Below are positions 1-32,475 of a DNA stretch of 64,000 nt, piece after piece. The DNA is from Blasia pusilla. Taxonomy: Eukaryota. The stretch lies in contig CM114271.1 in assembly GCA_050084515.1 (NCBI GenBank), forward strand, positions 29,946,001 through 30,010,000. The letters run 5' to 3'. The translations under genes were made by a program, and so were the position numbers. The stretch's first letter is position 1. Every line of letters starts with the position of its first letter. The notes below the pieces were generated by a model. It had not been told where the DNA came from. It ran no database searches and saw nothing but the letters and a program-made list of their open reading frames with translations.

Positions 1-1063
1 GGGAACATTGCTCTCAACACTTGTGTCGTCGATGGCATGTGTTCATCCCTGCGACTTAACGCATCTGGAATGACATTGTCCTTCCCCGGCTTGTGGATTA
101 GCTCCACATTCATCAACGCCAAGGTATCATGCCACCGAAGTTGTTTTGGCGTCACGCGATCCTGGGTCTCAAAATACTTGAGCGATATGTTATCGGTGAA
201 TACTCGAGTCCTGTGAAGTCCCAAATAGTGACGCCACTTCCTCAAGCAATGAACCACCGCAAACAACTCTTTCTCATGAGTAGGCCATCTCCTTTCGGTG
301 TCGGTCAGCTTCTTGCTTTCGTATGCTCAGTCTCCTTTTGCACCAACATTCTTGCAATCGCGAAATCGCTAGCATCCGTGTGCACCTCGAACAATTTGTT
401 CAAACTCCGGCGTTTAAGGCGGTTCTGCGAGAGGATCTCTTTGACTCGATTGAACGCTTTATCCACTTCCTCGGTCCATGTAGTATTGGAAAACTTTGCG
501 GTCCAATCCGTGAGAGGTTTCATTATGCCCGAAAAATTCTTCACGTATGTCCGTAAAAGCGACGGACTCGATGAACCTTCATCATCCCTTCACCGTGGAA
601 GGCGGTTCCCATTCGCAATCGCGCTCACCTTTTCCATGTCTGGACTCACTCCATTTGCACTGACCACATGTCCCAAGAACTTGATCTTCGTCAAACCGAA
701 CTCACTCTTATCCGCATTCGCATACAGCTTGTTCGCCCTAAGTTTCTCAAACACCGTCTTCAAATGTCGAGCGTGCTCCTCTAGTGTTTTCGAATAGATG
801 AGTATGTCATCTATATAGATGATCACAAACTCATCCGTCTCCTTGTGAAAGATGGAGTTCATCAAAGTGGTAAACGTCGGAGGCGCATTACAAAGACCGA
901 AGGCATTACTACAAACTCGAACGAACCGTATCTCGCCCTCTGAGCGGTCTTCTCTACATCCGCCGGCAATCCGAATCGATAATATCCTGATTTCAGGTCA
1001 ATCCGGCTGAAATACTTGGCACCCGACAATCGATCAAAGAGGTCATCCATCCTCGGTAGAGGA
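1..1063 (-). mobile_element. Ty3/Gypsy pol fragment (RT-RNase H) of a conventional family distinct from the DNMT element; frameshifted, cut at the RT YPLP motif
   Basis: ORFs 862-1050 ([23 protein letters not shown]), 590-865 (VIIYIDDILIYSK, KFLGHVVS) and 305-544 (EVHTDASDFAI); bases 1-115 translate on - to IHKPGKDNVIPDALSR (RNase H end). Confidence 0.92.
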
Positions 1064-1339
1064 ATAGGTTGGGAAGAGCCAAAAGGCTCAAACCCTAAAA
1101 ATAGCCCTTCCCTTGGTAACCTGCGCGCACAGGTTACCAGGGGCAGGTGACCTGGTCAACAAGTCACCCGACTGTAAAAGACCTCAACATGAAAGTTGTC
1201 AGAAACAACGTTCCTGACGCAATGGACCTATCCTCAACCTCATCCGACACTATGGGACAAAGTTACACTCAAGATAGTCCGCTGGCTCCTACGCCCTATC
1301 CACGATAGATCTCGGCCTATCGGCTACTCAGATGTGACA
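1064..1339 (-). repeat. Truncated second LTR copy (U3-like part only, stops at the TATA box)
   Basis: About 98% identical to 9930-10205; joins directly to the unrelated RT fragment at 1063. Confidence 0.9.
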
Positions 1340-1555
1340 GTTGTCGTGCGCATACATATCGCTACACAACATACATCGCTCATCACATCTACACCACACA
1401 ACACTGATCTTCCCCACACACGGGTCGATCCACACATGTACAAAAATCAACTCATACATATATATGGAGATCACTCAACCGCCCCCCTAGCTGGCAGTTG
1501 GATCCCCCCAACTCCAGATAGAAAATATCACATCTCTCTGACATGACCTACTACC

Positions 1556-1710
1556 CTATACACATCTCGGACACATCCATCGTCCCGTGGGAACCACATC
1601 AAGAGGGGGGGGGTCAGACATGACATATGCCACCCTCGAGAACAACCATCATATACCAACATGGTGGCTGCACCCCTCGCAGATCCGCACGACATACACC
1701 TCAAGCATGC
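1556..1710 (-). CDS. PHD finger at the polyprotein C-terminus
   Basis: CMSC...MLVYDGCSRGWHMSCLTPPL, then after a shift in the G-run at about 1605-1613 DVVPTGRWMCPRCV*; stop at 1556-1558. Confidence 0.88.
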
Positions 1711-2760
1711 AAGTACTACAGCCAAGCTCGGATCCACCGTCCCATCTACGTTCGGAAGATGACATGGCGCACAATTGCGCACATGATCCTTCCAAACCAT
1801 ACCATCACGTCCCTCCAACATGAGGACTCCGGTCGGTAATACCTCGCGTAGGATCGTACGCCCTGCAGTGACATCTAGCGTCGTGGGTTCCGCCTGCTGT
1901 AAATACACGTAATCTCCAGGATGAAACCTCCTAATCCCTGGACGATAACCTCCTCCACGAATGGTTGCGTACCTCAATGTATCTCTATGCTGGGCAATAG
2001 CTAAGTTCTCAAAGGCCATAGGCATAACTCTACGAAAAACTTCTGCCCTCTGAGAACATGCTTGCACCCACACATTTGGATCATCAAGATCTAACACCTC
2101 CGCCATGTCACGTCGAATCGCTGCAGGTAAATCTGGCTCTCTCCCAAAGAGCAAAAAGTACGGTGAAAATGACGCCAAGGATGCCTACCAACTAAAGCGA
2201 TAACCCATAGCCAACCATGGCAAGCTGTGAGGTCCCACTCCCTCAATCGCCCCCCTTTGCAAGCCATACTTGCAGATCCTCTCTTCACCGTCTGTACCAC
2301 TCTCTCCGCCAATCCATCCGCCTCGGGATGATCTCGGGCGTGGTGCGGTGATCTATCGGCCCCTGATCACACAAGGCCTGAAACTCTCCCGAACTGAACT
2401 CGGTACTGGACGGTCAACACCTCATTTGGTGCACCAAAGTAACTAAGCACACGATCTAGAAATGCATAAGTTGTTCCCTTGCTCGCCTTGTCTGGTAGTG
2501 CCACCAACTCTATCCACTTGGAGAAATGCTCCACCATGACCAACACGTACCTATGATGACGCCCTGTCAATGGCAAAGGTCCCGCAAAGTCTAAACTCCA
2601 CCGATAACCTAAACCCATAATCGGCAAAGGATGTAACTGCGGAGTGGGAGCATTGAAGGATGCTCGCAATCTGTCACATACCATACATCTGGCCACAAAC
2701 AGCTGTACCCCAGTATGCATGCCGTGCCACCAATACTTGAACATGGAGTAAGTTGTAAGT
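1710..2760 (-). CDS. DDE integrase core and C-terminal region (frameshifted)
   Basis: CMVC, WSLDFAGPLP, VMVEHFSKW, AERVVQTVK, SPYFLLFGREP, FHPGDYVYL. Confidence 0.93.
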
Positions 2761-4514
2761 ACGCTTTACTCCGAAATGTCCCAACTCCTCATGGGCATGT
2801 CGCACTACACGTGCTCGCTGGGAAGGATGAGGTACCACTCGTATCCTACCATCTCCCCATATCCACAAAATGTGAGTCCGCTCCCACCTGAACCTCTTGG
2901 CTCTCTGTAGGATCCGATCCCACTCCCTAGCACTCACTGTACTCGCAATGACACCAGTGCGGAAGAAGTCCACAACCTCCACGTCGTCATGGATATCACG
3001 ACCACATGTCGCCTCCTCACTAATCTCCGGATCCAAAGACTCATCATCCAATCCCACCACTGGAGTCATCACCTGTGGCTGACTTGCCATAGTCAACCAA
3101 CAAAGATAGGCAGATGCATGCCAACCGGGCACCATCTCCTCATCACTCTCTCCGTGCCATCGAGCTCCCGTGACGTCTCTCTGACTCAGACATGGCTTAC
3201 GACTCAATCCATCCGCATCCTGGTTCATCCGACCTGGCCTATGAACCACCTCAAACTCATACTCCTGTAGTAATAGAGCCCACATGGCAAGCTTTCCCGT
3301 AAGCTTGTCCAACTCCATCAACCACCTCAACGGCTGATGATCAGTGATAAGTGTGAAAGGGTTGCCAAATAAATAGCACCTAAAATGTGCCACGGCCCAC
3401 ACTGCAGCCAAGCACTCTCCCTCGTAGGAGCTGTACTTCGCCTCTCCAATGTTGTTCGATCGACTCGCGTAAACGAACTCCCTCTCCTTGTCATCCCTCT
3501 GAGTAAGCACTGCTCCTAGACCCAACATGCTCCAATCCGTATGTAACTGGAATGGGCGACCCCTAACCGGTCTCTGTAAAATGGGTGAGGACATCAACCT
3601 GTCCTTGAGCTCCTGAAATGCTCGCTCCTGATCATCTCCCCACAACCACACTTGATCAAGTCTTGTCAACAAGGTCAAAGACTTTGCGATCGCACTAAAA
3701 CCCTTGACATACCGTCGATAGAAGTTCGCCAGTCCAAGAAATGCTCGGACTCGACTCACATCTATAGGGCGTGGAATCTGCGCAATAGCCTCTACCTTCG
3801 TCTGCTGAACGCCTAACCCACTTGGGTATATGGTGTGTCCCAAGTACTCAATCTGCTCCTGAAAGAATCTGCACTTGCCTGGATGTAACTTCAGTCCATG
3901 TAACTGCAATCGTCAAAACACCTCCTCCAAGTGTCGCTCATGCTCCTCAACCGTGGAACTGAAGATAAGAATATCATCTATGTAACATCGTACAAAATCC
4001 AAGCCAGACAAAATCCTATCCATCACTCTCTGAAACTCCGCAGGCGCGTTCTTCAACCCAAATGGTAAGAACCGCCATTGATACAAGCAATCTCTCCGGA
4101 ACCGATCTATCCCCTAGAATCTTTGTCTTCTCCTGTCCTCCAACTTTGATAGGAAGGATGATGATAGCCAAGACGGAGATCTAAATCTGAAGATCTTTGC
4201 ATGCCCTACCGCATCAAAGATCTCCTCAGGAGTAGGCATGGCATACCGATCCGACCTCGTCTGTCGGTTGATAGGACGGTAATCTCGACACATCCGCCTA
4301 TCCGTCCAATTGCCATACATATCCTTCTTTTCCGGCATGACTGTGGCAGATGCATACTCCCTATGTGATAACTCCACAAGTCCTGACTCCTGCTCTGAAT
4401 CAAGGCTCGTTCCATATCAGAATACCTGTAGGGTCGACGAAAGATCGGCGTATCACTAGCCAACTCAATCCGTATCCGGGACCCTTCAAAGATACCCAAG
4501 TCTCTCATAATCAA
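2760..4514 (-). CDS. pol: Reverse transcriptase, RNase H and integrase zinc-binding start (frameshifted)
   Basis: RMCRDYRPIN, YAMPTPEEIFD, CYIDDILIFS (about 3960-3990), IEYLGH, LHTDWS, TDHQPL, NQDADGLSR, HEELGHFG. Confidence 0.95.
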
Positions 4515-4894
4515 GGCAAAACAACCGACATGCCCTCTCGAAACCTATGAACTGCCGTCGCTCTCCTCCTATCAACTTGAGACCTATCATAGGCTCCCAA
4601 GTCTCCATCGTGACCTCACTCGGAGAGGCGCAACCTCGGCTTTGGTTGCTATGTAGCAACCCTAGCCACCTCCGCATAATGACCACTCCACTCGACCTCC
4701 TACACCATGCTCCACATCCGAAAAATGAACATGTGCTACTCTAGCCGCCTTTCGCACTCTCTGCTCGAACGATGTCCAGAAGTCCATGGGTGCCTATCTC
4801 TCCTCGTCTCGCCTGACCAATGCTGTCATGCAGACCTTGTAGGCAGTGGTCCAACTCGTGGACGTGACGGCATGGATGACACTCGCATCCGTCT

Positions 4895-5860
4895 CTACTC
4901 AGCCATACCTAGGCTGACTATCCATATGAGACAGTTGAGGTCCATCGCCAGCCCCAACACCTGTCTCCGTGATGCCTCAGTCATCCCTGGCACCGCCGTA
5001 GTACCGGTAGTGAACCCCATGGCGCGCTCGCGCTCATCTGCTATAGGCTCCTCCAATACTCCGGTCACCTCATCCCAAATCATGCCTGGCCCTCCCTGAT
5101 GAAAGGCATGGGATGCTGGGAAGCTCACCAACGTAGGTAAGGTTGCCCTCAACTCCCCCACCCTATTGGTCGTGGCCAACGGTGGTCTATCATCGCGTGT
5201 CACCACCTGAGATCGACGCCCTGAGTCCAAAATAGCATCCACCGTGAGATGTGGTGCTCTCGGACTCGTGTAGGCTCGACTCAAGTACTCTCGATGGTAT
5301 CAGGTTCGTCCACCACAATCGTGGACGATGGGCACGTGACCCAACTCTCGGTGCATCTAACAACACAGCCGGTCCTAACCAGGACCTCACCTAATGTACA
5401 CTCGTCATCACACGTGCACGAGTATCTCCCAACAATGGCACGTTCTCCAAAATGTACGCTGGAGAACATATCTGACTCTGCTGCAAGTGTCGTACTACTC
5501 GCAGCATCTCCCAAAACATCCCTGACCTCGGATCCTGCAATCCTAATCCTCGGCCAGCTGATGAATGACCCTGACATGGCCATCCAGAAATCACCAAATG
5601 AATGGTGCCAACTCTATCCAGATCTTGCGCCCCCACCAAAGATATGTCGGCGGGTAGCGTATGCTGGTATCCCCGTACTGCAGATACCGACAACAACTCA
5701 TGATACCTCTGGACCAATCTCGCCACATGACGTAATGATACTCGCCGCGCGGTCTCATCTCTCTCCACATAAAGGTACTGATGCACCCGTATGCCTGCCT
5801 GCAATATGGCCCCCAATCCGGTGCTAATCCCTCCGAAGAGATCTAACACCCTAACACCCT
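4895..5860 (-). CDS. C5 cytosine DNA methyltransferase catalytic domain (DNMT3-like), split over three ORFs by frameshifts
   Basis: Motif I VLDLFGGISTG, II YVERD, IV VISGWPCQGHS, VI ILENV (ORF 5391-6185); VIII AHRPRLWWTN (5190-5390); IX ERERAMGF and X RRQVLGLAMD (4895-5284). Confidence 0.93.
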
Positions 5861-6209
5861 CCTCTGGGCACTGCCACACAACAGGTGTGGTATCTAGTGG
5901 GGTCATCGTCTCCACTCCAAGAGCCCGATCGCCACGTGACACTCGCTGCTCGGGATAAAAACATGACTCACGCCTTTGCCTCACGAGGTCGTTGGCACTC
6001 CTCTGTAGCTCTCGAGTCGTACCCCATAATGGTGAAGAGGCATCGCTAACATGGGAAGAGACACCCGCCATGGCCTGTCTCTCCGTGGGACTATCCGCTA
6101 CTGGGACATCCTTCGCATGTGCGTTCCCCTCCAACAACTCTCTTGGCCAGCTAACACTACCTGTGAAAGCCGCCAACGTGGTCACAGATTCGCCTCGTGA
6201 TCGACCACC

Positions 6210-7232
6210 TCATCCCGCAAACTGCACGGGTAACTTACTCATCCGACCGTCACCTGACCGCCATCTTGACCGATAAGCAACGGTCTCCTCCCAGAAGTCA
6301 AGGATGAATCCTAGGGGATATAACACTGTACTCCCCACCAACACATCGTACGACTCAATTGGTGTCGTAATCGCACGTGTGCGCACCATAGCACTATCCG
6401 TCGCATGCTCTGGCTGGACTCTCACAACAATCTCCTGTTGAGTCATATACTGAGTGGGTGATACGCCCCCAATCGAGGTCTGTATCTGGAAGGGACAAGG
6501 CTCAATGTCGGCCTTCCGTAACCCCAACGCTAAACACGCTGCCTTCCCTAACATCAAGGGTTGCGCTCCCAAATCAAGTAGGACGCGCTGTGGGTGGTAT
6601 ACTGTCCCCGTCGGACTAACCAAGCAAAATACTCCAGCTCGGTTATCCATTAACACTACTCCAGGTGTCACCACTGCTTGCTCTATGGCCGGTCGAGCTG
6701 GTATATCTACCAACTTTGCCGCCGCCGCATGCCATGACTCTGTGGGGAACGTCCCAAGCAGCGGCTCTGAGGGCAAGTCCACCACCTCCTCAACTACCTC
6801 TGAACAAGAAACAGTCATCTCTCCACGCTCACACAACGTGGCGGCCAACCGGAACACCTCAGCTGGTCCAACTCCCAACGTCGCCAACTCTAAGGCGGAA
6901 AATAGTGGAGTCTGACTCACTCTAGTGGCCACCTCCAATACTATAGTCGACATTGACTCCACTCGAGCCGGCATAGGAGTTGTCACTCCAACTCCTCGTG
7001 ACGTTGACGTAGGTGCCTGAATTGTAGGCACCGCTGGTCGTCGAGGCACCATCGATGGTGTGTGTAGTGCCTCCGACAATGTGACCGACTGTGGAACCCT
7101 GGCCTGCCGCCCATCGGTCCCCTCTGGTGGGTCAATCTCAACTCCACCTCTCGATGGCTCGGTGCCTCTCAGCAGACCCCGAGTCACCATCGCATTTGCC
7201 TCAACCTGGGCTGCACTACACATGAATCCCAT
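6210..7232 (-). CDS. Retroviral-type aspartic protease region of the polyprotein
   Basis: VLLDLGAQPLML (D-x-G active-site motif, DLG rather than DS/TG) and YDVLVGS motif in ORF 6210-7232. Confidence 0.8.
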   Translation of the reverse strand: MGFMCSAAQVEANAMVTRGLLRGTEPSRGGVEIDPPEGTDGRQARVPQSVTLSEALHTPSMVPRRPAVPTIQAPTSTSRGVGVTTPMPARVESMSTIVLEVATRVSQTPLFSALELATLGVGPAEVFRLAATLCERGEMTVSCSEVVEEVVDLPSEPLLGTFPTESWHAAAAKLVDIPARPAIEQAVVTPGVVLMDNRAGVFCLVSPTGTVYHPQRVLLDLGAQPLMLGKAACLALGLRKADIEPCPFQIQTSIGGVSPTQYMTQQEIVVRVQPEHATDSAMVRTRAITTPIESYDVLVGSTVLYPLGFILDFWEETVAYRSRWRSGDGRMSKLPVQFAG

Positions 7233-7289
7233 ATTGAGAGATCCTCACCCGGGTCAGGGTAAGAGGTACAAACCGAGTCACACTAGCGC

Positions 7290-8860
7290 TCGCGACTCCG
7301 TGCCTTCCCTAAGCCTGCATCATCGTCATGGCAGCAATCCTGCTCCAAGCGATCGATGCGTGAGAGAAGGGCCGGCTCTGGTGCTCTGCTCCATCTCCCT
7401 CCGGCTGGTGGTGGTCCTCTACCACCACGCCCAGGAAGAACTCCCCGACCTCCTCCAGACGACCGCCCCAAGCCCTCGGCCTACCCTGGGACGTGCCCCT
7501 CGGCGAAGGTCAAAACATCTATCCCTAGTGTGACCATATCTGTGGCAATGGTCACACTGGTGTGTGGGTGGGGCCATCCTCGTGGCTCTGCGCAATCGAG
7601 GCGCTTTGGTGGTCCCCTCCCATCTTGTGGGCGATCTCTCTGCCTATGGGCCCCTCCACACGCCCAACAAGACCACATCGGTCCCTATTTGGGCAACATA
7701 TGTAGGTGCGGTCGTTGCCTCATAGGCTCACGGTACCCGCCCGCTCTCTAGGCACACTGCCCGCTCCGTGGTATCTGGTGCTCATTTGTGGCACCGGTGG
7801 GGTCACCGCCGCTCGTGGACCCGTCGACTCTCGAGAAAATCCAGCGGTCACTACCGCTCCTCACTCATGTTGAGCTCAATACGCTCAGAAAACTCAAAGA
7901 CCACCTTCAATGCGGGCTTCATTTGTGTGAATCAAGACCGCATCTCGGACTCTCCTCCGTAGTTCTCGGTCCGAACCCGTACCAATCTTTGGACGATCGC
8001 ACCTCGATCCACCCAAACGTAGCAATGATCAGCCTCCTCATGCGTGTGAATGCCTCTTTCGGACTCTCACCCGATCGTCGCTGAAAATCTGTCAGAGACT
8101 CTTGACTTGTCGGTGCGTATGCCCTAGTAGCTCTTCCCCAACCTGTTGGAAGAACTCCCTTTGTGGGGTTGGCGGGTGGCCCTCTACCACCAGAGGTCTC
8201 GCCACATCGCTTTGTGTCCCGCCCTCCTCTCCATCTAGTCTCCGGGATGTTGGTGTGGGTCTCTCTCCTCTCACAATCCCATCATATGCCTCGCGACCAC
8301 TAGTGGACACATACCCTGGAGCCCAATACATCCTCCAGGCATCGATCTCTACTGAATATAGTGATCAGAACTCCATGTAGTCATCCATCGGAGGACCCTC
8401 CAAGTGCTCGAACAACCCCTTCCATGCCATGAAAGGGTTGAACCGTGTCGGGGTCCGTATCTCCTGGAAGTCGCACCATGTGTCAAACTCTTGGATGAAA
8501 TCATCTAAGTCGATGGTGCCCACTACACCCGAGAAACGACGCATGCCCCGATGGCCCATGTCGTCCATCTCCTGCCAAGTACTACTGTCTCTGTCGGTGA
8601 TCGCCGTCACGGACCGGTGTCGATGATAACGATCCGATCCACGGATGGATGTTGAGGGAGCTCCTCACTGGTAACCCCTCGGTATCTCACTCCACTCCGT
8701 GTCACACCACTACCACTGCTCGCACTACCCCGTTCTTCCGAACCCAGGAAGAACGCCGTGATGACAAACCCTGTCTCACCCGCTCAAGCACTCAGACTCA
8801 CCGAGAGTCTCCCACACGCCTCACTAGCTCACCTATGCTAACGTCAATCCCATGATGACA
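7290..8860 (-). pseudogene. gag: Gag (frameshifted) with CCHC zinc knuckle(s); true start uncertain, possibly near 9120 or further upstream
   Basis: FSGVVGTIDLDDFIQEFDTWC (ORF 8365-8610); CDHCHRYGHTRDRC knuckle at about 7516-7557 (my translation); second degenerate knuckle CWACGGAH at about 7640-7670. Confidence 0.8.
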
Positions 8861-9713
8861 TACTCGGCCTCACGCACGCTCAACACTCGGGCTCACCATG
8901 AGCCTCCCAACTGACTCACCTAACCTAGCGACACACTCTCGGGTCATACACGCGACCCCTACTCGGCAACCGCCGTATATCCACCAACATGCTACACATG
9001 AAAATAATCTACACTCGTCACCATCAGTGCACCCATCTAGCACCAACTACTACCCGATACCCATCACTCTCAATCATACACGACAAGTGCGGGAAAAGGG
9101 ACTCGAATGGGTAACCTGATCACGCCCTCCAACCTGCTATACCGTCAATATGCACTCCTCCACATGATATGACAATCTCTGCCACATAACACTCCCCTCG
9201 ACCAACACGTCGATCCTCCCGTCAACAGATGCGGACAACCCGTCGGCATCATGCACACTGTCCCTCCAGCGTAAACTCTCGCAACGCCCTATGCGCGCCT
9301 CAAAAACATCATGTCACGCCCGTTGTCTAACTTGTCGATCACTCAGCACGTCGACATCCTCCTTGCCCTCACGTTGCCCATGCGCACCGCGTTCGCCGGA
9401 CCGACCTCGTCCGTCCTACCACGTTGGAGAGGGGGGGGGGAAGACTTGGACCGCGGCCCTGTAAGACCCAAACCTGCCCGTTCCTTCTCTCTTGACGCCT
9501 TCACTTGCGTACACCCGACGCCCCACCACACGCTACACTCGGCTGCTGTCCCCCAACAATCCGCACCAGCAAAATCTGAGAAAAATGGACAGCGCTTCCG
9601 CCCACGGCCTTCCGAATAGAAAAAATGACACACAACGTCACACACACGTCTCCAGGGGCTCCCGACCAAGGCAACTCGCTTGCCTACCGCAAACTCTTAA
9701 TTCCCACCCCGAC

Positions 9714-9723
9714 ATCTTTCTCA
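9714..9723 (-). promoter_or_regulatory. Putative self-priming PBS (TGAGAAAGAT), complementary to the predicted transcript 5' end
   Basis: Lies immediately after the LTR-terminal CA; 9713-9726 and 9888-9901 form a perfect 14-bp inverted repeat; conserved at 16505-16518 / 16677-16688. Confidence 0.65.
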
Positions 9724-10205
9724 TGTAAAAATAAAGAGTAGTAAAAACGGCACACCTGGCCTAAAACTCCACTCCTCAATCTACATCGGCATATCGAGCC
9801 TCGTCCACCCTGTGCTATCAAGGAATCCGGACACTAGCACCCTAGTCCTAGCTCACACACATATAAGGGAGGTGCTCCAACGGCCCAACATGAGAAAGAT
9901 GGCTTAGGAAAGCTATCTTCCTCTCTTATATAGGTTGGGAAGAGCCAAAAGGCTCAAACCCAAAAAATAGCCCTTCCCTTGGTAACCTGCGTGCACAGGT
10001 TACCAGGGGCAGGTGACCTGGTCAACAAGTCACCCGGTTGTAAAAGACCTCAACATGAAAGTTGTCACAAACGACGTTCCTGACGCAATGGACCTATCCT
10101 CAACCTCATCCGACACTATGGGACAAAGTTACACTCAAGATAGTCCGCTGGCTCCTACGCCCTATCCACGATAGATCTCGGCCTATCGGCTACTCAGATG
10201 TGACA
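9724..10205 (-). repeat. 5' LTR of subfamily A (about 482 bp, TGTCAC...TTTTTACA)
   Basis: Starts TGT at 10205 and ends ACA at 9724 on - strand; contains TATATAA (9926-9932); same boundaries in the older copy at 16516-16830. Confidence 0.8.
9900..9932 (-). promoter_or_regulatory. LTR core promoter: TATA box and predicted TSS (C|A at 9901/9900)
   Basis: TATATAA at 9932-9926 on - strand, 32 nt upstream of a pyrimidine-purine CA initiator. Confidence 0.6.
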
Positions 10206-13200
10206 AGCGCCTAGAGATGTGTGTGTGAATTTTTTTGGTGTGTTTTTTGTTCAGAAGACCATAAGAGGTAGCGTTGCCCATTTTTCATGGGTTTTTCTCA
10301 TAGTAGAATTGTGTAGGGCAGAAGCAAGGTATCTGAGAATTTTGCTCCGGTGTAGCACCGAGGAATCATCATGGAAAGAGTGGTATGTGTCAAGAGATAA
10401 GAGGAAGAGTTTTAGGGCTTGCAGCCGCCCAAAAAGGGGGCTATCAAGTAAAGGGCGGTTGAACTAGGTTTATGGCGGCTAGGTCAGCTAGAGTTTGGTA
10501 TCTGAACATAATTGGTTCATGTCACAAGAATTTTTTAGGTCGCGCATGATACGAATGTCGTGTTAGGTCAACTCAGAGTTGTCCGCGTAAGGAAGAAGAG
10601 GAAACGGAAAACACTTAGTTGTCATAGCCATGGGTTGCCTTGCGCGGGTGCGGCGGACCTATGAAGACGATATACAAAAATCAAAAGGCATAAGGACTTG
10701 TGCAAGGGGACGGAAACCAAGCGGATGGGAAAGGAGAAGGCGTGGTCACGGCTGCATATGAAGCCGTGTCGTGGTCTAGGTGTGGCAGGCCATGCATAGG
10801 GTAATGTGTAAATTGCGGGAAGGGGAGTTCATGGCAGGACAACCAAGAGCGTAGATGCGATATAGCGGCAAAGGCAGGGTTTGTTCACTCATGGCTAAAG
10901 CAAGTTGACGGAGGTATAAGGGAGACGGGGACGTCGCGTAACGGCGTCTAAGAAAGTGGGAGCATTGAAGGGATGAGTATCTGCATAGGGCCATACGCTC
11001 GAAGAGAGGGGGGTGCAGATAAAGTTGCAACAAAGGTTTGCAAGTCGGACGAAGACATAAACAAGAGAGAGGTAGTGTTGGTTGCAGGCTCGAGAGAGTA
11101 CAGGCTCAGATAGAAGGAAGCCAAGGGGTGCTCCTGCATAGGGATGTGGGCTGCAGTGTTGATGGAGGTAGCTACGACATGTGTGAGAGCCATGTTGTGT
11201 GCATAAGCAGTTGGAAGTAGTAAGAGGGGCTCCATGTGGTGAGGCAATGAATACTTAGTTTGTAGAGCAATACATTGTGAACGGTTGATATAGTTAGGCA
11301 TTGGACGTAGTACGTTGGTGATTGGAGAGCTTCTTGGTTAGGGGGGGTTTCAATTTTCCCCATAGTAGTAGGAGGTGTTGCGATGAGGGACGTCCAATTG
11401 GGATCTTGAGTTCAACGATAAAGTATTCATTTGCTAGTTTTTTGCCGATTGGTGTTGAGAGGGGTGATGTATATTTCCAAATTGTGATGGAGTGCTACAG
11501 GTGGAGACACATACACTGATGTTGATAGATAGTCCACATCTATTTATGGGAGGTTTGAAGTGTGCTCGAGGAGATTCTCCGGCTAGGGAAGCTGCCACAC
11601 CACATGGAGTAGTGAGTGTTGACCATGTAATAGAGTGATGGGGGGCGTGTTAACATTATCCATTCAAATCCCTTTTCTCACATTTGTCTTGTGTCATTGG
11701 GGGTGTTGGGTATCAAGTAGAGCTTAGGCTAGATGGATGTAGTGCTGGTGACGGGGTGTATGTGTAGCATATTTGTGGTTATAGGGCGGTTGTCCAACTA
11801 GGGGTTGCGTGCATGATCCGAGAGGGAGTATCCATAGCGTAGGTGAGCTAGTTCGGGAGGCTCAGGGTGAGCTGAGTGTTGAGTGTGCGTGAGGCCTGGT
11901 GTGTTATCACGGGATCGATATTAGCTTAAGTGAGTTGGTATGGAGTGTTGGAGACTCTTGGGGAGTTTGAGTGCTTGAGCGTGTAAGGCAGGATTGTCAT
12001 CACGACATTCTTCTACAATTCGGAAGAATGGGATAGTTGGAGCAGTGGTAGCGATGGTAATTGGATTGCTATGATAGGACATATGGTCTGGTGACAAGAT
12101 TGCAGATGGAGACAATGTCATGTACATGTGGAGGGTGATGGATGATATGAGCCATTGGGGCATGCATCGTTCTTGGATGTGGTAGGCACCATCAACTTAG
12201 ATGATTTCATCCAAGAGTTTGACACATGGTGTGACCTCCAAAAGATACGAGCCCTTATGTTGTTAAAGCCTTTCATGGCTTGGAAGGGTTTGTTTCAACA
12301 CTAAGAGGGTCTTGCAATGGATGATTATATGGAGTTTGGGTCTTTACACTTAGTAGAGATCAATGCATGGAGGATGTATTGGGCTCCCGTATATATATCC
12401 ACATATGAGGTGTATCAAGGGAGAGTAAGAGAGGGTAGACCTACACCATCAACCCAGAAACTAGATGGAGATGATGGCAATGATGGTGGCAAGGTGGCAA
12501 AGATCTCAAGTGCTACAGCACCACCTTCTTTCAGTCCTACAGTGGACTTGTTTCAACTGTTGGGGAGGACCTACCTAGGCCTATGGACCGACAAGCTTAA
12601 GAGTCTACATGATTTCTAGTGGAGATCGGCTGAGAGGCATTCATGCGCATGCAATGATTGATCATTGCCACACATGGAGTGATTGAGGCACAATCAGAGC
12701 AGTATTGGTATAGGGTTCTGGAACGGGAATTACAAAGGAGAGTATGAGATGCAATTTTATTTCCCACAGCCCACATTGAAGGTGGTCTTTGAATTAATTG
12801 AGTAGATTGAGCTCAACATGAGTGAGGAGCAGGTCGTTACCATAGGACTTTCTCGAGAGTCAACGAGTCCACAAGTAGTAGCAGCCCCTTAGGTGCCCCA
12901 GTACCACGGGAGCCGGCCGGTGTGCTTAGAGAGTATCATGAGCCCATGAGACAATGACCCATGCGTACTAATATCCGTTGCCTCGCACGGATCGAAGATG
13001 GCTTGTTGGACGTGTGCTGGATCCCATAGGCTGAGGGAATACCCACAACATGGCAAAGGATCGAGGGAACCTATGATCTCTTATAAGCCACGTAAGATGG
13101 GCCCACCACAATTGCATTGTGACGATTTTCACCGATATGTTTTGATGTTCGTTGAGAGCTACGTCGATAAGTAGGTTGAGGGCCACAAGGTAAGAGAGTT

Positions 13201-14440
13201 GGTGGAGATCAAGGAGTTGAGTATTGGGTGGTAGAGTTCCATCCTCAGTCAAAGGAGATGGAGGACGTGCACCCGATGAAGTGCTCCTCACTTGCATCGA
13301 TATGTTGAAGAAAAGGATTGCTGCCATGACAATGTTGCAACTAGTGACAAATACGGAGCCGAGACAAGCTACTTTGGCTCCATTCTCTACATCATATCAA
13401 GATACGAGGGAGGATTATACATATTTGAGGTTCATATGCAGTGCAGCTCAGGTAGAGGCTGATGTGGTGGTGACTCGGTGCTACAAGAGTGATGGAGCCA
13501 CATAGAGGTAGGGTTGAAATAGACCCACAAGAGGGAACCGATGGGCAACACGCTAGGATTCCCCAATCATTTGTGTAGTCAGAGATACAACATACACCAT
13601 CGATGGTGTCCATAGAGTGTCCACGTGTGAGTAAGGTGCGTCGACGTCACGAGGAGTTGGAGAGAAGACTCCTATTGCAGCTCGAGTGGAGCCAATGTCG
13701 ACCAAGTTGTTGGAAATGCCTACTAGGATGATTCAAGCACAATTATTTTCCGCCATGGAGTTGGTGTCAATAGGAGTTAGACCATTGGAGATATTTCAGC
13801 TAGCTACCATGTTGTGTGAGCATGGAAAGGTGATTTCCTCTCATTCAGAGGTGGTGGACATATCCTCGGAGCAAGTGCTTGGGGCGCCTCCCACTCACTC
13901 ATGGAAGGTTGCGATGAAGAAGTTGGTAGATATATCAGCTACGCCAACGATAGAGCGAGCTATGGTGACACCTGATGTGGTGTTCTTGGACAACCAAGTT
14001 GGATTTTTTTGTTTGGTTAGTCCCACGGGTAAAATGTATCATCACACTACGTCCAACTTGATTTCGGACGTATCCCTTGATGTTAAGGAAGGCTGCATGT
14101 TTGGCGTTAGGGTTACATAAAGGCGACATTGAGCCTATTCTATTGGGGGCGTGTTATCCACATAATACATGACTCAACAAGAGATAGTTGTCAAGCTCCA
14201 ATCTGAGCACTATTTAAGCATGGGCTAGATAGTACACACTTGTGCGATTACAATACCAACAGAGTCGTATGATGTATTAGTAGGAAGTACAATGTTGTAT
14301 CCCTTGGTTTCAACCTTGATTTTTGTTAGAAGACAATTTATAGTGGTGTTCGACCTCGTGAGGATACAGTGATCACGTTGGCAACATCCACAAGTGGTGT
14401 TAGCTGGCCAAAAGAGTTGTTGGAGGGAAACCCACATGCA
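10206..14440 (+). mobile_element. Older, inverted relative of subfamily A (leader, gag, protease); 5'-truncated and ending just before the DNMT
   Basis: 10206-10300 matches the reverse complement of 9580-9660; ORF 12317-12619 (MDDYMEF...WRMYWAP) and ORF 13686-14120 align to the gag/protease region of the young copy. Confidence 0.88.
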
Positions 14441-14529: not shown

Positions 14530-17035
14530 TGTTGGAAAACCTACCTCACATGCTCAAGCACTCATACTCACCAAGAGTCTTCCACACTCCTAATGTGTGG
14601 AACACTCTTGGTGAGTCTTCCACACATTAGGAGTGTGAGTCTAATGCTAATTCCTTGATGATATACCCAACCTCATACGCACTCAACACTCGAGTTTACC
14701 CTAAGCCTCCCAATGCAAACTAGCTCACCTAAGCTATTGACAATCTCTTAGGTCATACGTACAACCCCAACTATGGAAAGCACCCTTTATCCACAAACAT
14801 GCTACATGCGCAAGGAATCTACACTCAACACCATTGCTACACCCATCTAGTTAAAGCTCTACTCAATACCCTCAATGATACGAGATAAGTGCGAGAAAAG
14901 AGACTCCACTGGGTAACCTTAATACGGACATCATCACTCTACTACACGATTAGCATTGATTGGCCCATATGGTGTGTCAACCTTGTAGCATGAAAATCTC
15001 CTGAAATAGCATATGAAACCTTCGGTTAATGGTTGTAGACTACCCGTCATCATCAACGCATGTGTCTGCACCACTGACACTCCCTTGGAAAATCTCAGCA
15101 CGGATCACTGATCTCACCTCGAGTTAGCACAATGCAACTAAATCAAACTCTCTTAATGACTATTAGGGCTGGCAAAGCTTGTCACAAATCATAATCCCCG
15201 CTTGAAAACACCAAGTCGCAAAAATATATCCTAAAAATATGGAAAAGCTATCCAACCACGTCAGCCCATCTTACCAAGTATCAACCATGAACATAACCAT
15301 GTAGTAGCTCAATCACGTATGACCTTCAACCACACTCGACTCCCAACCTCATAAGCATGACCACTTTGCAACCTCCCTTCACCGAGTTGAACTTGTTTTG
15401 TGCTTACTGATTAAAGAACCACGTCTGTCCTCTTCCAAATCCTTCTCTTGATCAAGATTGCTTGCATGCCTATGCCTATCCAAGCCCTACACGAGCCCCT
15501 ATGGCTAACCTCTAATTGACCCCTCAATTTTGCCGCCGATGTGTCTCAGCTCTCCTTCCATCGACCTCCACGTGACTCTAGCAGCATGGGGCCTTATGCA
15601 CCTCCCACTACCTTTGGAGCCATAATGGCTCCCTCTTTCCCCTCATGGACCTCCTGCCACAATAGCTACACATCGGCTCTCATGCTCTTTCGCAATCGTG
15701 TACTCTATCCAGCCATTTGTGACCCTCCTTCTGGCACAATCGACACTTCGTACATGCCGCCCTATGCAGCATTGACCCCCTTTCCCTATTTTCTTGGAGC
15801 CATAACGGCTCCTCCTAGCCTCCTTCCAAAATTCGTCTTAGCCTCCTTCAAACTTGATTAAGGCAGTTCTCTTCCCGGATTCCCGGTCACTCAACTCCCT
15901 CCTCCGTTGTTGCTACCATATGTGCAACTCAATCATATGTTTGGGTGCCTCCATCCAGCCCTCATACGCAAGCGCACTCAGTCCTACTTCTTGACTTCCT
16001 ACATACGTTGTACGCACCTTCATAAGACACTAGCCTACTTACTCGTATGGATGTGCGTCCCTCTTTAGTGGACGGCTATCATGCCACTTCTACATCCTTG
16101 TCCGCCTATGCGTCCATCAACTTGCAGGCCAAGGTTGCATATGGAAAAATTTTGTTTTGGTATGTCCATGGGCATGTCTAAACTTTTCCGTCCATGCCCG
16201 TCCTAGGGACTGACTTGTCCAATTTTATGCAACAATGTTGCCGCCCTTAGGCTCGCATCTGCATGAAGCCCTAGTGGATTGCTTCCCTATGAGCTTGCAT
16301 GTCCTCTAACACCGCATGTAGTTGTTTCTTCAACATGTGTTACCCGGTTCACAACTTGTGAGATCCAAACTCGGCTCCATCGTCCTCTCAACCTACTTGG
16401 CCCTTGCAACCTTTGACCTTGCAACACCTAGGCTTCGGCCACTGGCTCTCTTCTTGTAACCTAACCCTAGCCTGACCTAGCCAAAATTTCCCCTTTCCCC
16501 CTCCCATCTTTCTCATGTAAAATTGCAGTAAAAATTGAGTGCAAGGCCAACTTGACTCGGGAATCTACATCGGCATATCAAGTCACATCCACCGTGAGCT
16601 ATGAGGGAATCCATACGCTAGCACCCTAGCTCCTACCACACACAAAGTAGCAAGAGAGATGCTCCAAAGGCCCAATATGAGAAAGATGGCTTGAGAAACC
16701 CATCTCTCCCTCTCTTATAGCCATCCCCATGGTAACCTACGTGGGTAGGTTATCAGGTGACCCTTGACCCTTGACCCTCTATGTCATCAACGTAGTAGAA
16801 GTGTACCTACCGGGTAACTAAGATGTAGCAAGTATCGTGCGCATACATGCTGCTACATAATCCACACCATACAACTGCGATCTTTCCAATACATTGGTAG
16901 ATCAACATAAAAAAAGTACTCTTATGTATATAAATCAAAATCATCCAACCACCCCCTAGCTACCAATTGGATCCCCCTAACTCTAGATAGAAAAGATCAC
17001 CTCTACCTGACATGATCTACTACTCTATACACATT
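14530..17035 (-). mobile_element. Decayed subfamily A tandem remnant: 3' end (16833-17035), LTR (16516-16830), leader and gag start
   Basis: 14530-14925 resembles 8770-9120; 16500-16830 resembles 9710-10205; 16833-17035 resembles 1342-1565. Confidence 0.8.
16130..16237. mobile_element. 108-bp MITE of the hAT-like family
   Basis: TIRs CAAGGTTGCATA / TATGCAACAATG; flanking 8-mers TTGCAGGC / TTGCCGCC (6/8). Confidence 0.7.
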
Positions 17036-24883: not shown

Positions 24884-27800
24884 GTGGTGTCACACATGCC
24901 ACATGCCATCCTCTCGAACATCCATCATAGACTAGCATAGTGTCTGCACCACAGGCAGAACCACACAACATACATCGCAAACCTGCAGGAACTACTACTA
25001 AGCTCGGATCAACTGTACCATCAATGTTAGGAAGGTGACATGGCACACATGCAATTACGCACATGGTCCTTCCAAACCATACCATTGCATCCCTCCAATA
25101 AGAGGACACCACATGGCAAAACCTCATGCACTCTCAAGATAATGCACCTTGCAGTGACATCCAATCTCGTGGGTACCGTCTGCTGCAAGTAGACACAGTC
25201 TCATCGAATAGTCGCATACCTCAACATATCCCCATGTTGTGCAATCGCCAAGTTCTCAAATGCCATGGGTATCACTCAGCAAAACAACTCAGGCCTCTCA
25301 AAACATGTTCGCATGCATACATCACGGTCATCAAGATTCAACACCTGACCAACATCTCGACAAATGGCAGCAAGTAAATCCGGCTCTCGGCCATAAAGCA
25401 GCAAGTACGGTGAGAAAGAGGCTAAGGATGCCTGCCAGCTGAATCTGTACCCCATTGCCAACCACAACAACAGGAGGTCCCAATCTCCTCGGTCATGTCT
25501 CTACAAGCAATACTTGCGTAATCCTCTCTTCACTGTCTGCACAACCCTATATGCTAGTCCATCCGCCTTAGGGTGATATCCTGAAGTGGTGGGGTGGTTG
25601 ATCGACGCCTCATCACACAAGTCTTGAAACTCCCTGCATTTGTACCCTGGTCTGTCAACACCTCAGCTAGTCTGCTGCAATGACTAAAAAATTGACTAGG
25701 AAGGCATACGCTACAACCTCACCTTTGTCACACAATGCAACCAACTCTATCCAGTCCGAGAAGTGGTTGACCATTACCAACACATAAGAACTATGAAGCT
25801 CCGACAAAGGGTAAGGTCATGCAAAATCCAAACTCCATCTATAACCTAAACCCTTGATCGAAAGTGGACGCAAAATTATACTCGAAGCATTGAACAATTC
25901 CCAGACCCGATCACATACCATGCACCTGGCAAAGTGTTGAACGTCAGTCAGCATGCCTTGCTACCAATACTATATCTAGAGCAAATTGTACGTCCACTTC
26001 ACTCCAAAATGACCCAAATCCTCGTGGGCATGGCGCACCAATCGTGCTCTCTATGAAGGATGAGGCACTACACGTACTCTACCATCCTCCCAAACTTGCA
26101 ACACATGTGTCTCCTCTCACCAAAAACGTCTGGCTTGCTGTAGGATTTTATCCCACTCTCTAGCACCCACTATGCTCGTGAGGCTTCCAATACGTAGGTA
26201 CTCCAAAACTTCTCCATCGTCATGAAAATCTCTGCCACATGTCGTCTCCTCACCGGCCTTTGTATCTACGGACTCTCCATCAGACCTTGCCATCAAAGTC
26301 TCCGCAATCTGGCTCTCGATAGCCAACAAGCCCAAATAGGCTTCCGCGTGCCATCCTGGCACCAACTCCTCATCACTCTCTCTATGCCAACGAGCTCCAA
26401 TTGCATTTCGTTGGCTCAGACATGGGTTACGACTTAAACCGTCTGCATCCTAGTTGAGCATCCTAGGTCTATGTGCCACGTGGAAGTCATACTCCTGCAA
26501 TAAAAAATCCCACCTCCCAAGCTTCCCTGTAAGCTTTTCAAACTCCATCAACCACTTTAGTGGTTGATAATCAGTTATGATGGTAAAGGGGTTGCCAAAT
26601 AGATAACACCTGAAATATGCGACAACCCATACTACAGCCAAGCACCCCTCTCATATGACCTATACTTTGACTATGTAGTGTTGTTCGAGCGACTAGCGTA
26701 AGCCACCACAATCTCTCTATCCTCATTGTCATGATGGATGAGCGTGGCCCCAAGCCCCAACATGCTCCAATTTGTATGCAACTGGAAAGGACACCCCTTG
26801 ATCGGTCTCCTCAATATGGGCGCGGATGTCAATCTGTCCTTGAGTAGCTGAAATGCTCTCTCCTATTTTTCCATCTAGTGCAACTCTTGATCCACCTTTG
26901 TTAGCAAGGTTACCGGCTTTGAAATTGAACTAAAACCCTTGATGTACCGTTGATAGAAGTTCGCCAATCCCATGAATGCATGAACTCAACTCACATTTGT
27001 AGGGCGTGGAATGCGTGAAATAGCCTCAAACTTTATTTCCTACACTCAAAGGCCCATTGGATATATTATATAACCCAAGTACTCAATCTAGTCATAGTAG
27101 AACTTGCACTTGCCTGGATGTAGGTTCAACCCATGTAATTGCAATCGTTGAAACTCCTCTTCTAGATGTCGCTCATGCTCCTCAATCGTGGCGCTAAAGA
27201 CTACGAAGTCATCCATATAACACCTAGCAAAATCCAGACCTACCAAGATCCTTTCCATGACCTTGTAAAACTCAGCGAGGGTATTCTCTTACCCAAATGG
27301 TAAGAAACGCCACTGGTACAATCCTTCTTGTAAGGATCGATAACCGAAAATACGGTCTTCTGCTTGTTCTCGAATTTGATAGGCAGCTCATGGTATCCGG
27401 CTCAAAGATGTAACAAATTGAAGACCTTTAGATGCTCAATAACATCAAAGATCTCCTCATGGGTGGGCATGGCATACCTATCCTACTTCGTGTACCGATT
27501 GATAGCTCGGTAATCTCCACACATCCGCCTATCCATCTAGTCGTGATGCAGATTCTTTTTGGCAGATGCATGACCATGGTAGATGCATAATCTCCATGGG
27601 ACATCTCCAATAGTCATGCTCCAACCAAGTCTTGGATCCTACCCTGAATCAGAGCCCTCTCCATATCAATGTACCCGTAGGATCTTCAGAAGATCGATGT
27701 GTCACTCGACAACTCAATGCGGATATTAGGGATCTACATTAAGTTGTCGAGTGACACGCCGATCTTGATTTCAATACGTTGAAGGGTCCAACATTGGACC

Positions 27801-28369
27801 CTTTACCCTACCCAACCCTAAACCCTAAACTTGCGGTGCCATTATGGATCTTGATCTTGATTTGGGTACGTTGAAGAGTCAAACGTTGGACCCTTCAACG
27901 TACCCAAATCATGCATGCTAAATGCAAAAAAACTCCTATAACTCCTAAGGAATAGATATATTTTACCCCGCTCTTAGGGCCCGTATCTGGCTCCCAAGTC
28001 TCCATTGTGACTACGGCAGGACTCTCTGGCGTGTTTATCGTTTTGCTATGGTGGAATAACGTCTCAGACAATAGAACTTGGCTGCTCCCCTCCAGCCAAC
28101 TGCAAACTCTAATCTCCTCCACATGCAGTACCCAAAACCACGCTCCATGTTGTGGCTATTATCTCCCGCCATACCTCCAAAACATCCCAAGAAGTCCAAG
28201 GGTGTCTCTCTTGATCATCCCAAGTGTGTTGATATCCTCACGTCTCGCCCTCAGCCCCAACCTCAACCTTCAAGGTAGGCATGGGGTTCACCAACGTAAC
28301 ACTTGTAACCTGTCGCAATCTCAAACGACGTTGCTAAGCTACTCCTAAGCTAGAAATCCATGTAAATCA

Positions 28370-29300
28370 ATTTAGGTCCGTCGTCTTACCCAAGACATGA
28401 CGTCGTGATGTCCGTCATAGTGATGATATTGTCGTCACTCTTATGGGAAATCCCTTTGCTCACTCTCGCTCATCGGCGTTGGGCTCCACCAGCCGTTATA
28501 CATGCTCATCCCAAACCAAGCCTGACCCGGCCTTCTTAAATGCATAGAAAGCGGGAAAACTCACAAATGTCGGAAAGCCTACCTGTGGCATGCCAATCCT
28601 GTTGACCCCATTCAATGTAGGTCGATCAACGTGTCATACTGCGTGTGAGAAACGACCAAGATCCATAAAAGAATCCACCAACAATTGGGAAGGGCGCTCC
28701 ACTCTTGCATACGCCCTAAGCAAAACCGCATGTGGCACCAAGTTGGTCCACCAAAGACGCGAGCAATGTGCTCGTAAATCTACACTCGCCGCATCCAACA
28801 ACACTTCGTGGCCGATCCATGCGTGCAACTGATGTACACTCGTTACCATGCGGGACCTTGAATCGCCCAAAATCAGCACATTCTCTTGAATGTATGTTGG
28901 AGGATGGGACTGATGCTCTTGCAAGTGTCGCAAGATCCGCATCACCTCCCAAAACAACGTAGATCGAGTTTCAGCCAATCTGCTACCTTGTATAGCACTC
29001 GATTGGTTGTGAGAGGGCCAACAAGCGATGACCAAATCTATGGTCCCTACGCACCCCAAGTCTTCCGCCCCCTGAAATGAAATGTCCCTCATTAGGGAAT
29101 TATGGTACTCTTGGAAAGCGGACGTAGACAACAAGTTGCAAAATGGGAGGCGTAAGTGCGCCACATGGTGAAGTGAAGCGCGCCTCATACCATCATCAAT
29201 CTCAATGTATAGGTATTGCTACACACACACTCTTGCCTGCAAAACAACAACTGAGCATGTGCTAATCCTTCCAAAGAGATCCAACAAGCAAAAATTCTCC
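28370..29300 (-). pseudogene. Degenerate C5 DNA methyltransferase domain of subfamily B
   Basis: LLDLFGRIST (I), VIACWPSH (IV, catalytic Cys replaced), IQENV (VI), AHCSRLWWTN (VIII). Confidence 0.88.
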
Positions 29301-31150: not shown

Positions 31151-32475
31151 ATCAGGACAGACGGAGTAGCAAAGAAAGGAGCACGGTTGAACGGAGTCCA
31201 ATCAAGTTGACGTCATGACAGCTTTGTATCGCCATTGGTTGTAGTGGAAAATCAGGACCCAACGATAAGCAGCTCGCAGCAACCACGTGGTAGGTTGGGT
31301 CGATATGGACACGGTAGCAGGCGAGAGGTGTCGAAACCGTGTATCGACGACAGCGGCTGGAGAAAAAACATTGGCACAAGAAGGATAGTCAGTGGCTGCG
31401 AACAAAGATGAAGACGCACAAATTTTGGGCCGCCAAGCGTCGATGCGGCAATCCTTAACTCTCAGCGGAAAGCGCGGTACCCAAGCTACGGCAAGCGAGC
31501 AGAATGTCTGGACTAGGCGATAACAGGGCCAGGGCGCCTAAATACCACCTACAATCCAAGGCTAGAACAAGGTCCGTTGATTGCGAACAAGGGCCCCTAA
31601 AAATTGACGTTATAGGCTAAATTGAGTTGACTTGCATGTGGTCAGCAAGGAATGCAGTTTATCCCCACAAATTCACTAAATCGATCGCTAGAATCCCGAA
31701 TTTTCATTCAAAATTTCCCACTACTCCACAATAAGTGGGTCAGCTCCCTCCAAATTTATTTTTCAATGATCTTCTACTCCCAGGTATAAATTTTCTTGTC
31801 CGATCCACTCAAAATAAAAAGGTGTTTACTTTTGTACCCCTCACTCAAGGAGTTACCCAAGAAAATTGGAAGTTTCACTCACACAGTAGCGCACTGGCTA
31901 TGGCAGCTTGCTCAATCAACCACAACTTTGTGCTCCAAACTCAAAATTTTGCATTGTTTCCTCAACGGCGTACACAGCTTCTTGATCTATGACCTTGTCA
32001 AATTGATTTCTTCATTTACACTTCCAATAAAAACAGACAGGGACTGTCATGCTGCCCTTCAATCTGCACTCCTACAAAAAATTTGGCAGCGCTTCCGCAT
32101 TGATTCCTCCCAATGAAAACTTCATGCCTATAAAATCAGAAATGAGAGAGGTACATGGTACTCTCGAGAGCACCCGCATGGGGAAATCCACCCCCATACT
32201 AAAGGCATGTGGAAGCGCCTTGGGTTGCGCTTCCACGTGCCATTCTCATGTACGAAAATCAGCAATGAAAACAACAAACTTGAGTGGCTCTTGATCTGGT
32301 GAGCACTCCCATGAGCTGCTAAATGGGAAACACCGTCCCCAAAATGCACATCAGCAAGTAACCACTCACCTCCTCCATTGAAACTCTGTCACTCTTTGCA
32401 TTCTCTCTTTGTAAAATCGATCCAATCTCTCTCAACAACTCACACCAAGCTCTCAAGGGTTTGCACTCTCTCTCA

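Follow-up and report, generated by a model that had tools for sequence, protein, structure and literature searches.

In the fission-yeast retrotransposon Tf1, the minus strand is primed by the first 11 nucleotides (nt) of the element's own mRNA, which is nicked between bases 11 and 12. To our knowledge, Tf1-type elements of fission yeast are the only ones for which self-priming has been proven experimentally. As a general mechanism it is covered in two published accounts (PMC5006619; PMC6317226), and the latter (Neumann et al. 2019) predicts it for 12% of plant long terminal repeat (LTR) retrotransposons, namely the Tcn1 chromovirus clade and the TAR copia elements. KnitGypsy-Dnmt3 of Klebsormidium nitens is presented in a figure legend of de Mendoza et al. 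2018 as a Gypsy element bearing a DNA methyltransferase (DNMT), with repeats that are "the same as that of a DIRS retrotransposon", in the order A-coding-B-A-B (PMC5890265), and a 2026 preprint names the group streptophyte Gypsy-DNMT3 (bioRxiv 10.64898/2026.05.21.726589). For DIRS-1, the primer is stated to be unknown (PMC7192593). The element considered here lies in a stretch of 64,000 nt from Blasia pusilla (assembly GCA_050084515.1, contig CM114271.1, positions 29,946,001 to 30,010,000 of the forward strand), which we refer to as the window and within which all positions are counted. It is a Ty3/Gypsy-type retrotransposon with a 14-bp inverted repeat, one arm of which is inside its terminal repeat and the other directly after it, and this inverted repeat is most likely a self-priming device. 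An initial annotation, made from the sequence alone, had proposed that the family of this element self-primes like Tf1; the proposal is supported by the position of the arms and by their covariation among relatives, and it includes a predicted RNA start at about 9900.

The element is on the minus strand, as the initial annotation implied, with its Pfam domains in the order DNMT, reverse transcriptase (RT), RNase H and integrase. The inverted repeat is perfect and stands where it had been annotated: plus-strand positions 9713–9726 (CATCTTTCTCATGT) are the exact reverse complement of 9888–9901, and the 10-mers quoted originally map to 9714–9723 and 9891–9900. In the sense of the element (minus strand), the upstream arm CATCTTTCTCATGT at 9888–9901 is the proposed RNA 5′ end and self-primer, and the downstream arm ACATGAGAAAGATG at 9713–9726 is the putative primer-binding site (PBS), which begins at the first base after the terminal repeat A1. 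The upstream arm starts at 9901, which is 31 nt after the first T of a TATATAA box read directly on the minus strand (9926–9932, first T at 9932). This distance had been given as 32 nt, with a start of transcription at about 9900; the TATA spacing stands, at 31 nt, and no RNA peak marks the start itself (runs X20 and X21, see below). Within the repeat, word depth in run X1 is highest over this arm (bin 9879–9915, about 298,000), and no DNA variant at 10% of depth or more is listed for 9888–9901. According to 30 first-order Markov simulations, a mean of 0.07 perfect inverted 14-mers with a loop of 20–300 nt is expected per window, and only a few are present in the whole of it; the match in this element (the main copy) was equalled by none of 200 shuffles of the repeat. 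Further perfect inverted repeats of at least 14 nt, hairpin-like in form, are found at 14583–14640 and 27699–27911, inside decayed copies of related elements.

A1, the 5′ LTR of the initial annotation, occupies 9727–10205 (minus strand), starts with TGTCAC at 10205 and ends in ...TTTATTTTT at 9727. Because its second copy, A2 (1064–1339, minus strand, found by blastn), is truncated at 1064, with the repeat B2 (see below) and the right end of the element missing, the window alone does not define where the repeat ends; the portion duplicated there is 276 nt long (1064–1339 against 9930–10205, 97.8% identity by blastn). It was fixed from public DNA and RNA runs, using DNA word depth and the points at which reads and contigs diverge. 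Summed over the DNA contigs of run X1, word depth is 23,000–300,000 inside the repeat and 0 beyond 10211, and towards the inner end it drops from about 98,000 (bin 9731–9767) to about 35,000 (9694–9730) and about 1,100 (9657–9693). Sequences from other copies diverge exactly before 9727 in runs X20 (9 reads), X21 (7 reads) and X13 (2 contigs), and reads diverge also at 10205, the outer end of A1. Two contigs, record 9 of X13 (0 differences) and record 1 of X1, bridge the repeat end together with the 14-nt site and stop at 9711/9712. The repeat ends at 9727, and the 14-nt PBS arm therefore starts at the first base after it. The end is thus ...TTTTT at 9727 and not CA at 9724, as first annotated, and the placement of the complementary arm directly after the repeat holds. 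A longer LTR including the 141-nt segment 1340–1480 was considered and rejected, as the two copies cease to match at 10205/1339 and the DNA flanking 10205 is heterogeneous (agreement 0.46).

The two arms recur in three other decayed copies within the window, all on the minus strand. In an older copy of the same family (16505–16830, with its A repeat at 16519–16830), the PBS arm (16505–16518) is unchanged and the upstream arm (16675–16688) has a single change, which leaves 12 contiguous bases at 16677–16688, so that 13 of 14 positions pair; the 230 nt around the arms are only 76% identical to the main copy. Both arms had been said to persist there amid divergence, which is indeed the case. This copy is of tandem form, with one repeat common to two internal regions: it is preceded by a B repeat and a 3′ untranslated region (16831–17034), the order along 16487–17034 being 3′ untranslated region, G-run, B, A, PBS and leader. 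Its upstream unit has a large internal deletion (17095–17347 matches 5753–6005). Elements B and C are internally about 70–75% identical to the main element. Element B (32399–32926, A repeat 32413–32926) has its arm at 32570–32583 and its PBS at 32399–32412 (ACAAAGAGAGAATG), with 12 of 14 pairs, and the non-autonomous element C (51858–52400, comprising A repeat and PBS) has its arm at 52036–52049 and the same PBS sequence, ACAAAGAGAGAATG, at 51858–51871, with 13 of 14 pairs. Seven positions distinguish the PBS of B and C from that of the main copy, and the seven mirrored positions distinguish its exact complement from the main arm. An LTR copy D (33330–33745, plus strand), in which the arm is recognisable and the PBS is absent through truncation, was excluded from the comparison.

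To what extent the two arms change together was followed further among relatives of the element. The best named homologues of its RNase H-integrase open reading frame (ORF) are from liverworts (Calypogeia fissa, 67%, and Marchantia polymorpha), charophytes (Closterium and Klebsormidium nitens, the latter with proteins of 36–41% identity) and a volvocine alga, and many of them carry PF00145 (DNMT) and PF00628 (PHD finger). Scanning metagenome contigs with an alignment of 25 homologous proteins gave 80 loci; flanking direct repeats were checked in 50 of the 80 and are present in 13, and L048 was dropped as a contig-end overlap. A blastn search with ten repeat sequences as queries located 49 repeat 3′ ends in the metagenome loci and the window, downstream of which stands either a PBS-type leader or the conserved segment B. 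For the 20 PBS-type ends, the best 14-nt complement of the junction sequence was sought within each copy's own repeat. At least 12 of 14 positions are complementary in 14 ends, 11 of 14 in four (L009, L013, L052 and L057) and 9 of 14 in two (L029 and L046, where the site is deleted or replaced), and in 8 of the 20 instances none of 200 shuffles matches the observed complementarity. The same arrangement is found in four sequence states, comprising the main and three decayed window copies and 13 related metagenome copies. The PBS reads ACATGAGAAAGATG in the main and older copies, ACAAAGAGAGAATG in elements B and C, CTCAAAGAA.. in L013, L014 and L027 (with TTCGAAGAA.. in L009), and TCTAGAAAAACTA in a large group (L024, L026, L037 and others) whose members are only 34–48% identical to the query protein. 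The offset of the PBS arm from the repeat end is −3 to +1 nt in every group, and in all four the upstream arm follows a TATA-type box (TATATAA, TATAAAA, TATAAAG or TATACC) at 29–33 nt; it is 123–178 nt before the repeat end, L014 and L013 apart.

An alignment of the four window copies by MAFFT misaligned the arms of B and C and was rejected, so the pairs were instead counted with a script that used fixed coordinates and one constant 13-bp register for 17 instances (L013, L029 and L046 were dropped). Standard pairs fill 191 of 221 cells in register, against 93–121 of 221 at shifts of 1–3 nt. Each of the 13 pair positions shows 2–5 standard pair types, that is, compensatory change at all 13, and two compensatory double changes separate L009 from L027. 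The pairing is thus maintained by compensatory change among relatives, in line with the covariation across subfamilies that the initial annotation had suggested looking for. It can also be noted that one group of relatives (L014 at 4040–4090, and L027 and L009 at the equivalent place) has the PBS sequence a second time, immediately before the arm. This creates a local palindrome, CTCAAAGAAC-ATA-GTTCTTTGAG, which stands after the TATA box and ahead of the presumed RNA start.

Folding of the leader, likewise suggested at the outset, was carried out on RNA spanning the upstream arm to just past the PBS, with stability compared to shuffles. The arms pair in the minimum-free-energy folds of all three representatives: in the main copy the first 10 nt are in this helix (overall z = −1.73), in L037 the arms form 16 bp (z = −5.36, with none of 200 shuffles as stable), and in L027 they form 14 bp (z = −0.99). 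None of the four groups has a TGG motif at the repeat end, nor does any copy have a TGG-type tRNA PBS adjoining it, in agreement with what had been observed initially for the main copy; in three of the four window copies TGG occurs only 12–25 nt from the repeat end, at a varying distance. RNA reads over the repeat number 127 (X20) and 103 (X21), and are mostly 90–95% alike, which indicates that they come from other copies; their depth is at most about 40 over the repeat and 0.3–3.5 over the leader of the main copy. The only places at which they begin or end are 10094 and 9927, with 5 molecules each, and the latter was rejected as a transcription start since it coincides with an indel variant at 9932. 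A depth peak at 9879–9915 was not retained as a start signal either, as it comes from a 42-nt repeat fragment embedded in another transcript. This fragment (9865–9906, including the upstream arm) lies between unrelated sequences in a comparatively well-covered transcript (X20 and X21, loose-end agreement 1) and shows three substitutions, 9885 C>A, 9900 T>G and 9903 C>T.

The terminal repeat is real, and it is not a plain LTR as first annotated: it is the A part of split direct repeats, arranged as A-PBS-coding-polypurine tract-B-NN-A-B. In the main copy, the repeat B1 (141 nt, 1340–1480, minus strand) lies between A2 and a G-run polypurine tract (TAGGGGGGC, 1481–1489, minus strand) that is directly upstream of it, and L009, L014, L026, L037 and L046 have the same G-run immediately before B. 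B1, which takes up the 111–180 nt immediately before A2, recurs directly after A2 as B2 in seven of the nine related loci in which this could be tested (L009, L014, L026, L037, L046, L051 and L057), and this recurrence was not seen in the remaining two, L024 and L058. The identity of B1 to B2 is near that of A1 to A2 (e.g. 92% and 91% in L014 and L026). The elements start with TGTCATG and end with CATGACA (TG...CA), and the internal junction of B1 and A2, CATGACA-NN-TGTCATG, is palindromic; the A/B junction varies by 1–2 nt among relatives. Four-bp flanking duplications are found in four of five complete relatives, matching at 3–4 of the 4 positions. For the main family, RNA reads from other copies show the start of B1 following the repeat at 9727 and the end of B1 preceding it at 10205; a splice as the source of this repeat-to-B junction was rejected, the boundaries not being GT...AG. 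Element C ends 3′ in B, A and B (49206–49641), its B1 and B2 being only 82% alike and its surroundings rearranged. The last 16 nt or so of B (GTATGCGCACGACA.. and variants), just before A, show much stronger conservation than the sequence around them without being rich in purines; they are found in the window at 1340–1355, 16831–16846 and 49530–49545, and also in the related loci.

Taken as a self-priming device, the inverted repeat would act as follows. Judging by the TATA spacing, the upstream arm, near 9901 and some 31 nt past the box, would be where transcription starts. The first 13–14 nt of the RNA would then loop back across about 160 nt to pair with 9726–9713, right after the repeat; in this step, complementarity, position and covariation are direct observations. 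By analogy with Tf1, the RNA would be nicked by the RNase H of the element where the duplex ends on the 3′ side, and the freed 3′-OH would prime the minus strand into the repeat. Finally, the G-run at 1481–1489, which is observed to abut B, may prime the plus strand. Several points weigh against such a function. The expected start peak near 9900 was not found in the RNA reads of X20 and X21, which are sparse, and overall fold stability is ordinary in the main copy and L027 (z = −1.73 and −0.99). The 86% of cells paired in the covariation count is an inflated figure, as the register and arm position were chosen in each relative for maximal complementarity; moreover, the largest group is AT-rich and partly palindromic, and the shifted controls still pair in 42–55% of cells. 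In L014 and L013 the arm is decayed at the homologous site, and the best match in L014 is elsewhere, at −86. ARAGORN found no tRNA gene in the window or in 45 related loci with which the PBS could be compared. The main copy in the window is dead, its internal region carrying several stops and frameshifts and its A2 being truncated. Lastly, the canonical Tf1 pathway alone leaves the extra copy of B after A2 unaccounted for.

Among the alternatives, a chance match is effectively refuted: it has only the low complexity of the purine and pyrimidine runs in its favour, and would have to explain a repeat of which 0.07 are expected per window, shuffles that never reach the match in 8 instances (0 of 200 in each), and complementarity that is found again at the homologous position in relatives. 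Covariation demonstrates pairing rather than priming, and in each of the three folds a structured domain of about 160 nt is enclosed by the stem, so that the arms could instead form a long-range stem in the leader RNA (for packaging, dimerisation, stability or translation control), with reverse transcription started from some other primer. We consider this unlikely, since in every group the downstream arm is exactly at the place required of a primer-binding site, −3 to +1 nt from the repeat end, where neither a TGG motif nor any other alternative site is conserved, and since the upstream arm has its 3′ end directed towards the repeat end, as priming requires.

That the site after the repeat binds a host RNA primer, the match within the repeat being incidental, is very improbable. 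Half-tRNA priming does exist in plant copia lineages (PMC6317226), and an internal tRNA fragment or another small RNA could be envisaged here; a host primer would however keep the site constant and leave the repeat unconstrained, while the four PBS sequences observed each match their own repeat, with compensatory changes. Priming by a host tRNA is disfavoured for the same reason, namely that the four PBS variants each track their own repeat. The DIRS-like split direct repeats of the element raise one more alternative, in which the complementarity serves a DIRS-like replication, bridging or restoring the ends or circularising the cDNA, and not priming of the Tf1 type. The A-coding-B-A-B arrangement is real in seven of nine loci and has been described for DIRS-type elements and KnitGypsy-Dnmt3 (figure legend in PMC5890265), and the primer of DIRS-1 is given as unknown (PMC7192593). 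This alternative is nonetheless improbable: the complementary sequence follows A1 only and not A2, the termini of the element are not involved, the integrase encoded is of the DDE type and not a tyrosine recombinase, the ends are TG...CA with 4-bp target duplications, and both the PBS and the G-run tract are at their canonical places. Self-priming therefore remains the most likely explanation of the inverted repeat.

The extra copy of B would call for an additional step. With the PBS directly behind A and the polypurine tract directly ahead of B, canonical reverse transcription is expected to yield a product that has B-NN-A at each end. One tentative possibility is that Gypsy-DNMT elements reverse-transcribe in this canonical way and then integrate in circularly permuted form, from a two-LTR circle or concatemer opened by the DDE integrase. 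The cDNA might in that case have B-NN-A as its true LTR at both ends, self-primed after A and primed by the G-run before B. The cut could conceivably fall at the internal palindrome CATGACA NN TGTCATG, which would mimic an LTR-LTR junction. If true, permuted integration would link LTR and DIRS-type architectures mechanistically, and self-priming would become a candidate for the unknown primer of split-repeat retroelements.

The remainder of the main element is a decayed internal region (1531–9712, minus strand), delineated from ORF lists, Pfam and translations. After the leader it contains a CCHC knuckle at about 7600, a protease-like ORF (6213–7244), the C5 DNMT domain (PF00145, 5394–6209, E 3.6e-10), the RT (3916–4416), RNase H and integrase (2370–3912, with rve and Integrase_H2C2 domains) and a PHD finger (1531–2184, at 20.1 bits below the Pfam cut-off of 24), all on the minus strand. 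The DNMT translation shows FGG.S.G and PCQ, which we take to be motifs I and IV, as well as ENV. PF00145 is located between the protease-like ORF and the RT; it is present also in a second subfamily in the window (28637–29218, minus strand, with RT, RNase H and rve downstream) and within pol in distant relatives (L014, 8007–8615; L026, 8196–8849). The PHD finger follows the integrase, at the place of the chromodomain of chromoviruses. Pfam gives no chromodomain in 1531–2184, and the closest relatives have PF00628 and not PF00385, the former being among the precomputed annotations of many of them; the non-autonomous element C has kept its PHD-finger region (49759–50409). As to the immediate surroundings, the truncation of A2 at 1064 borders on an RT fragment of another Gypsy element (PF00078, E 8e-18, 590–1063, minus strand). 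Next to the start of A1, on its outer side, the leader of the element recurs in inverted form at 67% identity (10206–10325 on the plus strand against 9542–9660); this second leader belongs to an older head-to-head copy on the plus strand (about 10206–14334) without repeat and PBS.

Judged by its domain content, the element is not a Tf1/sushi chromovirus. Like Tf1 and Tf2 of Schizosaccharomyces pombe and other Tf1/sushi elements, it has a site after the repeat that is complementary to the presumed first bases of its own RNA, no TGG tRNA-type site, and a duplex geometry that fits a nick by RNase H and extension into U5; it differs in its duplex of 13–16 bp, in having a PHD finger after the integrase instead of a chromodomain, in the cytosine methyltransferase in pol, and in its split repeats (A...B-A-B) instead of two plain LTRs. 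With the Tcn1-clade chromoviruses of mosses and club-mosses and the TAR elements of Ty1/copia it shares a plant PBS predicted to pair with its own LTR (PMC6317226 for those two groups), and it is of a different lineage from both. The initial annotation called self-priming unusual for plant Gypsy elements, which is right insofar as the lineage is a distinct one, although self-priming had already been predicted for those two groups (PMC6317226). The main text of Neumann et al. 2019 has no mention of Marchantia, liverwort, Klebsormidium, methyltransferase or PHD (PMC6317226).

The element resembles KnitGypsy-Dnmt3 and belongs to a green-lineage Gypsy group with a C5 DNMT in pol and a PHD finger after the integrase. 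As in Gypsy-DNMT3-type elements, the DNMT is inside a pol of Gypsy order and the repeats are arranged as A-coding-B-A-B, the main copy itself being truncated before B2. KnitGypsy-Dnmt3 likewise has a Gypsy-type pol with an embedded C5 DNMT and A-coding-B-A-B repeats; unlike here, a PHD finger is not mentioned in its description, and priming, primer binding and PBS have 0 occurrences in the main text of de Mendoza et al. 2018 (PMC5890265). DIRS, PAT-like and Ngaro elements share the split direct repeats A1...B1-A2-B2, with an internal junction of two element ends, but have a tyrosine recombinase and no DDE-type target duplications, whereas the present element has an rve integrase, TG...CA termini, 4-bp duplications and a recognisable PBS and polypurine tract. 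Full-text literature searches on self-priming with liverwort and Gypsy-DNMT3 names returned no description of self-priming for the lineage, and split direct repeats in elements with a DDE integrase were not found reported beyond the 2018 figure legend (PMC5890265). The mechanism itself is known, and the literature searches gave no earlier description of it for this Gypsy lineage with its DNMT, PHD finger and split repeats.

Self-priming frees a retrotransposon from the host tRNA. The group considered here, found in bryophytes and green algae, would be a third plant lineage with predicted self-priming, distinct in its domains and with clear covariation. Since identity in RNase H-integrase goes down to about 35% among its members, the trait would be old and maintained within the group. 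Both the lineage and the architecture are unusual, in that PBS and polypurine tract are canonical while the split repeats are DIRS-like and the integrase is of the DDE type; how such repeats are generated and what primes them thereby become directly testable in a liverwort or charophyte model.

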